IMG/VR virus record: IMGVR_UViG_3300029057_000206
DNA length: 64,000 bases
Direction: 5' to 3' (one strand)
Origin: a virus
In this document: in pieces, positions 11,590 through 11,637 of the stretch
How the letters are laid out: the number at the start of each line of letters is the position of its first letter
Position numbering within the stretch: position 1 is the stretch's first letter
The notes under the pieces: generated by a model
The model's database searches: none
The model's input: only the letters and a program-made list of their open reading frames with translations
What the model was told of the DNA's origin: nothing
Position numbers and translations under genes: made by a program

Positions 11590-11637
11590 AAATCCTTTGA
11601 CGATTTTTCAAATGGCGCAATATGTGTATTGAAAAGG
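11590..11637 (+). promoter_or_regulatory. promoter element P (tcCTTTGACGATTTTTCAAAtGGCGCAATATGTGTATTGaaaagg), copy 1 of 11
   Basis: A -35-like TTGACG is followed after 17 nt by an ATATGT/TATGTG -10-like sequence. The whole ~45-nt element is conserved, not just the hexamers. Confidence 0.5.

Follow-up and report, generated by a model that had tools for sequence, protein, structure and literature searches.

A recurrent, directional promoter-like element precedes unrelated gene and RNA modules

The window analyzed in this study is a 64,000-nt stretch of DNA from IMG/VR virus record IMGVR_UViG_3300029057_000206. Within it, a short element, here termed P, recurs in front of genes and structured RNAs, and the locus raises the question of what P is: a promoter, an operator, a binding site for the Cascade complex of a CRISPR system, or the scar of a mobile element. 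We consider it quite probable that P is a directional promoter, which is common to many small transcription units and also provides portable homology for module exchange.

The initial annotation had listed eleven plus-strand copies of about 45 bp, and both the list and the count of exactly 11 were correct and complete; the coordinates given there lay 5-9 nt upstream of the TTGAC starts, flank included. The consensus CTTTGACGATTTTTCAAAAGGCGCAATATGTGTATTG occurs 11 times in the window, always on the plus strand. The pattern TTGAC-N8-A-N-A-N-GGCGCAATAT was matched exactly by 10 of the 11 copies and never in 100 shuffled sequences, and the eleventh copy (59027) deviates by carrying GGATAAATAT in place of GGCGCAATAT. 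With a 51-nt weight matrix, the 11 P sites scored 50-69 bits, and the site ranked twelfth was a CRISPR spacer (46204-46238) with 12.7 bits. All remaining positions on both strands scored 1 bit or less, and the maximum in 20 shuffles was 4.9. Conservation indeed covers the whole element, as had been proposed, and exceeds 45 bp, since it extends from about -22 (an A-tract plus TTTCCAAAATC) to +36; in this numbering, position 0 is the T of TTGAC. The 11 copies, all on the plus strand, and their surroundings are as follows.

P1, 11575..11633, plus strand (element start 11595, TTGAC at 11597): a structured leader or non-coding RNA of ~200 nt downstream, then open reading frames (ORFs) at ~11850 and 12200.
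P2, 12990..13048, plus strand (13010, TTGAC at 13012): terminator 26 nt upstream; Shine-Dalgarno (SD) motif and ATG at +27, 81-aa ORF.
P3, 22403..22461, plus strand (22423, TTGAC at 22425): TTGACA variant; tRNA-like RNA 22459-22605, then an SF2 helicase gene 22666-24969.
P4, 25017..25075, plus strand (25037, TTGAC at 25039): mini-CRISPR array ~25143-25380, then a 215-aa ORF.
P5, 31179..31237, plus strand (31199, TTGAC at 31201): SD motif and ATG at +22, 109-aa ORF, then a flotillin gene 31995-33779.
P6, 33966..34024, plus strand (33986, TTGAC at 33988): strong terminator 33795-33836 upstream; tRNA-like RNA 34022-34165, then a 106-aa ORF.
P7, 38092..38150, plus strand (38112, TTGAC at 38114): SD motif at +4, Cys-rich ORF of 110 aa with a solitary CRISPR repeat (38571-38606) behind it.
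P8, 38992..39050, plus strand (39012, TTGAC at 39014): tRNA-like RNA 39048-39190, a second T-arm RNA to ~39433, 242-aa ORF, solitary repeats 40196-40299.
P9, 42192..42250, plus strand (42212, TTGAC at 42214): terminator 42143-42183 upstream; structured RNA of ~200 nt with a T-arm-like hairpin, 42248-42446.
P10, 42454..42512, plus strand (42474, TTGAC at 42476): putative promoter of the cas5c-cas8c-cas7 operon; 85-nt leader with a repeat-like hairpin 42547-42580.
P11, 59005..59063, plus strand (59025, TTGAC at 59027): degenerate copy with GGATAAATAT; SD motif at +71, 478-aa ORF.

To what extent P is confined to this region was addressed with a pattern scan of metagenomes, which returned at least 117 loci. 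We analyzed 118 pattern-matched loci (117 from metagenomes and one from IMG/VR; numbers with the prefix L denote loci of the comparison set). A site of at least 22 bits was present in 100 of them, and the other 18, among them several JGI 'Ga…' contigs, were chance matches. The single IMG/VR match (L068) fell below the matrix threshold and was rejected as a true P. Wherever a contig name states an origin, it is the human gut. Masking of the GGCGC positions in the matrix gave 97 unique sites across 1.08 Mb and none in shuffled sequences; GGCGC itself was present in 75 of the 97, and one- or two-base variants in 22. In total, at least 95 distinct P copies were identified in human-gut metagenome contigs of the same element family. 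Island restriction of P, which the initial annotation had put up for checking, was not borne out. P is element-wide, because its copies span more than 100 kb of single contigs (for example, 4 kb to 118 kb on ERZ841120 NODE-36) and continue past the end of the window, with two further copies within 9 kb of its 3' end; it is also present at a chromosomal hotspot described below.

The host element could be narrowed down. Neither INPHARED nor PLSDB had a counterpart for 24 kb or 8 kb of window sequence. In the assembly collection, 1584 indexed blocks contain exactly the Cas8c protein of the window, on contigs of 200-332 kb from gut metagenomes; among roughly 750-900 contigs, the longest ones with window proteins measure 376-386 kb, while the chromosomal GlmS of the same species reaches 3.85 Mb. 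The NCBI names attached to window proteins are "Roseburia faecis" (from a metagenome-assembled genome), Lachnospiraceae or Anaerobutyricum. These data fit an extrachromosomal element of ~350-390 kb of human-gut Lachnospiraceae that is binned with Roseburia faecis. It is probably a "Hodor" conjugative megaplasmid. Hodor megaplasmids are 211-389 kb long, stem from human-gut Bacillota, and carry a type I-C system with a degraded array and frequently TnpB (PMC12934698). The element under study resembles them in size, gut metagenome sources, Cas5c/8c/7, degenerate repeats and TnpB; the GC content of the window, 40%, is lower than the published Hodor averages of 44.6-47.1% (PMC12934698). Rep_3, ParA/B/M, a type IV secretion system, and the sortase and giant surface-protein module of Hodor were not found within the 64-kb window or ~20 kb of its flanks. 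The Hodor paper does not discuss promoters and names no Roseburia host, and all ten of its mentions of 'non-coding' or 'oriV' concern origins of replication and transfer (PMC12934698).

The orientation of P relative to genes supports the proposal that it is promoter-like. Within the 1.2 kb that follow P, the longest ORF lay on the P strand at 81 of 89 sites, compared with 49 of 75 for the 1.2 kb before it (Fisher p = 7.6e-5). Each copy had been said to be followed within 10-40 nt by a structured RNA or by a ribosome-binding site and gene. This was roughly right; the SD motif and start codon lie within 4-71 nt for P2, P5, P7 and P11. In the family as a whole, an SD motif and start codon occur within 70 nt of P at about half of the sites, and T-arm RNAs and/or CRISPR repeats follow P at about a quarter. 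Terminator-like hairpins are located 26-152 nt upstream of P1, P2, P6 and P9, and no upstream terminator was called for P3, P4, P7, P8 and P11.

The cargo that follows P is diverse, and the downstream genes are non-homologous. Three copies (P3, P6 and P8) precede an RNA of ~145 nt that consists of a long 5' hairpin and a 3' tRNA-like half. The latter includes an acceptor-like stem in which changes are compensatory, as well as a small hairpin and the T-arm GGTTCGAnTCC. Relatives of this RNA occur in L074, L108, L139, L161 and L095; ARAGORN yielded no match to it. Genes for a CCA-adding enzyme and 13 tRNAs are located in the vicinity. The RNAs after P1 and P9 (11631-11850 and 42248-42446) are paralogous, have a length of ~200 nt, are structured (z = -4.6 and -5.3) and both terminate in a T-arm-like hairpin, CCGGTTCGAGTTCGG and CCGGTTCAACCCCGG, respectively. 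Related RNAs are found 3' of P in L086, L099, L152 and L155. The P-led RNAs had no Rfam match, either at gathering thresholds or with E<=1. The sequence after P in L177 is a leader with 73% identity to the leader of the main CRISPR array of the window, and then a two-repeat mini-array.

Several features next to individual P copies were also observed. A truncated C5-methylase fragment (11063-11464) lies just 5' of P1. Solitary CRISPR repeats (38571-38606, 40196-40228 and 40268-40299) directly follow the stop codons of the ORFs downstream of P7 and P8, and may be Cas5c processing sites within mRNAs. The hairpin at 42547-42580 downstream of P10 is repeat-like, lacks the ATTGAAA handle, and is situated ~10 nt 5' of the cas5 ribosome-binding site; in the 85%-identical orthologue of L074 it is preserved, with compensatory changes in the stem. 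The hairpin could serve autoregulation as a site at which Cas5c binds or processes the RNA.

Could P be devoid of function, namely the scar of a repeated mobile element (a miniature inverted-repeat transposable element or a transposon end) or the outcome of segmental duplications? P is repeated and dispersed, it is found at mosaic junctions, and insertion sequence (IS) and TnpB genes are present in the window. However, inverted copies are lacking, as all 11 are on one strand, and the copies are not segmental duplicates because their flanks are mutually unrelated. Furthermore, the relation to downstream genes is strictly directional, the core is kept between lineages with unalignable flanks, and P has a consensus -35 box and a fixed distance to the 5' helices of three RNA families. 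A scar is thus scarcely credible as an explanation.

The mosaic junctions themselves were mapped by comparing the window with the related loci. Homology with L108 and L139 stops at 25065, which is the final base of GGCGCAATAT in P4, and further homology ends were found at 11579, 33974, 42452 and 31117, all of them at most 85 nt away from a P. Breakpoints inside or at P were observed in L108, L139, L167, L074, L136 and L178. In L108, the upstream flank of P4 is fused to an RNA of the P6/P3 type. L074 has retained the P10 core at 39 of 40 positions, with either flank unalignable or at about 50% identity, and lacks the whole P9 unit. In L161, a CRISPR repeat is located immediately 5' of its P8, and in L178, a P connects the upstream flank known from the L186 locus with the window sequence from 63896 onwards. 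A second motif of the window, class A (see below), also coincides with breakpoints (8980/9009 and 17414). The suggestion of a mobile promoter cassette is supported by these junctions, at which homology breaks at P, and by the occurrence of the same core before unrelated cargo in at least 95 contexts.

According to the mechanism that we propose, RNA polymerase would initiate rightward from P, and the products would comprise crRNA-like RNAs and mini-arrays, the Cascade operon, tRNA-like non-coding RNAs and mRNAs of ORFan genes. With identical ~60-bp cassettes in front of unrelated cargo, P copies would act as portable homology, and recombination between them would swap upstream or downstream modules among plasmids. 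P-led cassettes are present at the chromosomal hotspot, too.

Which factor might read P was approached via its anatomy, using a logo of 95 family sites, which is biased at the positions used for retrieval. From 5' to 3', an A-tract at -20..-16 (conservation 0.84-0.92) is followed by TTT at -13..-11, by the moderately conserved CCAAAATC and by TTTGACGATTTT; TTT(C)CAAAATC occupies -13..-3. The -35 box is TTTGACG; the bases of TTGAC are conserved at 0.99-1.00 and the sixth base, G, at 0.95. Between the -35 box and GGCGCAATAT lies an A/T-rich spacer of 11 nt (ATTTTTCAAAt) with A at 13 and 15. The -10 region, GGCGCAATAT, is followed by a variable stretch of 6-7 nt and by T33-G34-N-A36, with frequencies of 0.83 for T28, 0.81/0.88 for T33/G34 and 0.93 for A36. 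The -35 element thus agrees with the sigma-70/sigma-A consensus, with TTGACG in 10 window copies and TTGACA in one (P3). The start of transcription is most likely located 8-10 nt after GGCGCAATAT, at the conserved TG.A (T33-G34-N-A36), as predicted from the logo; the predicted 5' helix starts at position 34 in three unrelated RNA families. A palindrome was also considered and rejected, as the CAATA...TATTG symmetry of the consensus is not kept across the copies.

Other promoters of the same window provide a comparison. The window is Firmicute-like, with strong SD sites. A near-perfect sigma-A promoter (37294-37266, minus strand; TTGACA-17-TG-TATGAT) is located 5' of an array of 13 tRNA genes (35387-36893, minus strand), and because this textbook promoter precedes the tRNA array, P is regarded as a separate class. 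Probably a second promoter class is represented by the class A motif, which is composed of a T-run, TTCATATT (TT(T/C)CATATT), 5 nt and (G)TGTAAAC, and is positioned ~30 nt before the SD site GAAAGGAG. It has about 12 copies on both strands, each facing a gene:

1424-1462, 2253-2291, 6449-6487 and 7079-7117, plus strand: class A.
8965-9003, 17455-17493, 19467-19505 and 21713-21751, plus strand: class A.
6413-6439, 17426-17452, 38059-38085 and 38963-38989, minus orientation: class A.

P, class A and the canonical sigma-A promoter together would therefore amount to at least three promoter types in the window.

An alternative that we regard as possible, if somewhat doubtful, is that P is a composite of operator and promoter, in which GGCGC, the spacer and the upstream TTTCCAAAATC would form an asymmetric site bound by a single regulator or alternative sigma factor from the plasmid, which would control the entire P regulon of CRISPR RNAs, Cascade, tRNA-like RNAs and ORFans as one on/off unit. 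An analogy is offered by the C1 operators of the plasmid-prophage P1, which are asymmetric and scattered, or by a middle or late promoter class of a phage. About 25-30 informative positions are conserved, far beyond what a sigma-A promoter needs, the -10 region fails the sigma-70 test, and the coexistence of the 12 class A copies with a canonical sigma-A promoter suggests separate regulatory classes. However, recent copying or gene conversion could also result in extended conservation, and chromosomal P-led cassettes would need the factor in trans or from the host. Moreover, the cognate DNA-binding protein for which the initial annotation had advised a search did not turn up: no sigma factor or helix-turn-helix protein was recognized by Pfam, PHROGs or PADLOC on the ~55 window ORFs, and no candidate factor emerged from the fetched relatives. 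A phmmer search of all ORFs of the fetched loci with RpoD and RpoE queries gave no match, which is a weak negative. The consensus sequences for sigma-54, sigma-28, sigma-H, extracytoplasmic function and sporulation sigma factors, MerR-type promoters and single-subunit RNA polymerases, compared by eye only, did not fit P.

Several points weigh against P as a shared promoter and portable homology. Recurrence, directionality, cargo types and mosaic junctions are observations, but that transcription initiates at P, where it starts and what recognizes the -10 region are deduced. The sigma-70 -10 consensus was not found at a spacing of 16-18 nt in 9 of the 11 copies; the scan accepted only P2 and P4 (AATATT, 16 nt). 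CAATAT is the only hexamer with A at -11 and T at -7, but its spacing of 15 nt is short, and TATRTR at 18 nt, from which the start would fall at A36, lacks the T at -7. Neither the window nor ~1.1 Mb of fetched relatives, which together cover the smaller part of the element, yielded a cognate sigma factor or regulator. Many breakpoints are not at P, and because the loci were fetched via the P motif itself, the logo and the breakpoint counts are biased toward P. In addition, P7 in L156 has diverged as fast as its flanks, so that constraint on P is non-uniform. For P as a shared promoter, the -10 region could be read either by the host sigma-A, helped or limited by another protein, or by a dedicated sigma factor encoded elsewhere.

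The initial annotation had also considered P a Cascade-binding site, and the CRISPR components of the window make this a pertinent question. They comprise the main array, two mini-arrays (one of them behind P4), several solitary repeats and the repeat-like hairpin in the cas5 leader, all on the plus strand:

41886..42110, plus strand: mini-array, with one spacer in common with the P4 mini-array.
42596..45919, plus strand: type I-C Cascade genes, cas5c, cas8c and cas7 only.
46170..46675, plus strand: main CRISPR array with degenerate repeats that retain their hairpins; leader end polymorphic between strains.
46204..46238, plus strand: spacer 'old1', ACCAAAATCTTTTGACATTCTTATAAATGGTAACA, the first fixed spacer of the main array, a P-family sequence.

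Neither cas3 nor cas1/2/4 was found within the window. Across 12 strains (the window, L058-L067 and L072), 3-5 spacers with perfect repeats have been added at the leader end of the main array in strains other than that of the window, and the distal part is fixed, with 7 spacers and degenerate but compensated, hairpin-forming repeats. As adaptation genes are not present nearby, spacer acquisition may rely on cas1/2/4 elsewhere, for example on a host chromosomal I-C system whose repeat has the same 3' handle (L194-L196). The closest relatives of the plasmid Cas8c are ~50% identical and belong to complete chromosomal I-C systems of Roseburia, the repeats of which share the 3' handle ...GGATTGAAAT with the plasmid repeats. 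P was not found in the chromosomal Roseburia I-C loci examined. In L194-L196, a degenerate repeat (…CCAGTGGATTGAAAC; about 7240-7273, minus strand) was noticed between cas3 and cas5 of the chromosomal locus, at the position usual for regulatory mini-CRISPRs of the CreR/CreA type. The SF2 helicase encoded after P3 was evaluated as a Cas3 and rejected, since it is generic and restriction-like and has no HD domain.

If the P copies were binding sites of the plasmid Cascade, the P regulon would be under crRNA-guided repression; binding would repress and not cut, because the window contains no cas3 gene. The P-family sequence of old1 speaks for this possibility: its alignment with P9 and P8 shows 15-16 matches in the first 17 positions and 26/36 overall, and the copy in L152 combines a TTC protospacer adjacent motif (PAM) with a PAM-proximal match of 15/16. 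Yet in the 11 window copies no more than 19-26 of 36 positions agree with old1, the mismatches clustering from the base after TTGAC onward, and the PAM-equivalent triplet is ATT in P8 and TTT in P9. Of the 95 family sites, 68 have NTT (TTT 33, CTT 14, ATT 11, GTT 10) and only 6 have TTC. Because of the low match to old1 and the predominance of NTT, the canonical P copies are not considered Cascade sites. Other spacers of the array and mini-arrays, compared with the window and the loci, gave only chance-level 11-mer seeds, in P as elsewhere. The sequence that old1 genuinely targets lies beyond the window and is a separate variant: the divergent P promoter GGCAACATAT is matched at 34 of 35 positions directly after a TTC PAM in L098, L180 and L186, and at 33 of 35 in L092. 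Thus, Cascade binding as a general function of P is highly improbable, and the proposal applies to this one divergent P-family promoter, which, judged by match and PAM, is a bona fide protospacer of the Cas3-less plasmid Cascade.

The divergent variant and the insertion hotspot are found at the following places.

L186 4390-4940 and L098 753-1210 (minus strand), also in L092 and L180: P variant and toxin-like locus.
L075 1-600, further L080, L093, L106, L107, L111 and L171: hotspot loci; empty site in L189-L193.

The P variant precedes an ORF for a 29-aa peptide, MITYSTLFEFCKLIVAIISLIFQIFNHKK, which is hydrophobic and C-terminally basic and looks like a type I membrane toxin. It is located 236 nt (start to start) 3' of a canonical P, which itself precedes a solitary repeat-like RNA. 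The P/toxin unit of 1.5 kb is an insertion with a flanking duplication of ~110 nt, between fic and merR-pst-nadA-glmS of the R. faecis chromosome; a location of the toxin locus on the plasmid was not supported, as the flanks (pst, nadA, glmS) are R. faecis chromosomal. From its sequence, the insertion looks like a Cascade-repressible toxin unit. Between fic and merR-pst, 3' of a 28-aa hydrophobic ORF (MSTSEVLTLLLVVFAALSYIDNHNNKKK), this hotspot harbors no fewer than three distinct insertions led by P, which is positioned at about +445, +615 and +1210, and L171 runs on into sequence 76% identical to the 3' end of the window. A far-reaching and rather unlikely scenario is a plasmid-specific P regulon, in which a non-housekeeping factor would co-express the Cas3-less Cascade with the crRNA-like and tRNA-like RNAs. 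One fixed crRNA would silence the chromosomal P-type toxin promoter, and plasmid loss would free the toxin, amounting to a cross-replicon CRISPR addiction circuit.

Is an element such as P without precedent? The middle and late promoters of SPO1 or T4 and the dispersed C1 operators of P1 are examples of several internally uniform promoter motifs on one mobile element. P resembles these phage and plasmid-prophage classes in its conservation beyond -35 and -10, and differs in that a dedicated sigma factor, activator or repressor was not identified here. T4-type phages offer a closer parallel in their promoter-early stem-loop (PeSL) cassettes (Arbiol et al. 2010, PMC2839356; Comeau et al. 2014, PMC4122927). 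In both cases, a short conserved regulatory cassette is placed before many non-homologous, mostly ORFan genes in a plastic region, modules are shuffled via recombination between copies, and terminator stem-loops can lie just upstream. In contrast to PeSLs, P is found on the megaplasmid of a Gram-positive gut anaerobe and not in a T4-type phage, its -10 is not sigma-70-like, a nearby upstream terminator accompanies no more than about half of its copies, crRNA-like and tRNA-like RNAs are among the cargo, and exchange reaches the chromosome. Putative mobile promoters (PMPs) are 5' regulatory sequences of 50-100 nt with at least 80% identity (Matus-Garcia et al. 2012, PMC3488235). P shares with them the occurrence of a highly similar 5' regulatory sequence before unrelated genes, within one replicon and across replicons. 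However, P stays below the identity threshold on average but not in every pair, as pairwise identity of the window copies over 50 nt has a mean of 74% and reaches at least 80% in 15 of 55 pairs, and it is defined by a motif and not by near-identity.

The P variant of L098 and L186, and only this variant, resembles the CreTA, CrePA and CreR systems, in which promoters are repressed by Cascade guided by crRNA-like RNAs (PMC12737573; bioRxiv 10.1101/2023.03.10.532045). The likeness comprises a guide flanked by degenerate repeats, a PAM-adjacent target over the -35 box and the upstream promoter part, and a small toxin-like gene. In contrast to Cre systems, the match is nearly full (34/35) and not partial, the guide is in the main array of the plasmid and the target on contigs with R. 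faecis chromosomal context, and the 11 window copies do not fit. Type I-C has no occurrence in the Cre review (PMC12737573). No earlier account of P came up when the literature was searched with the motif string. In summary, the logic of P is known from PeSLs and PMPs; less usual are the putative toxin promoter targeted by Cascade and the families of tRNA-like RNAs.

The remaining content of the window is listed for completeness. BspA-type leucine-rich repeat and LPD1 proteins, the SF2 helicase, a C5 methylase and the flotillin are also encoded.

2323-3705: CCA-adding enzyme gene.
9610-10872 and 3839-5251 (minus strand): TnpB (IS605 OrfB) and DDE transposase genes.

One paralogous ORFan family is represented at 25537-26184, 26459-26791 and 46747-47394, and the genes that follow the P4 mini-array and the main array are homologous to each other. 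A second ORFan family is repeated four times (19468-20421 versus 61343-63785); the repeat families are D2, D4, D5 and D15 in all.

P is carried by one of the most widespread extrachromosomal elements of human-gut metagenomes, as the 1584 blocks with its Cas8c indicate, and hardly anything has been described about how this element is regulated, about its host or about its non-coding content. If P were merely a strong promoter of host type, spread by copying, it would be a useful annotation tool and biologically ordinary. If it is confirmed, P would be a sequence handle for the transcription units of this element, including dozens of unannotated crRNA-like and tRNA-like RNAs, and a visible record of cassette movement between plasmids and into the Roseburia chromosome. 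It would also represent a testable Gram-positive promoter class with a -10 region that does not fit sigma-A, and a way in to a possible Cascade-controlled toxin.

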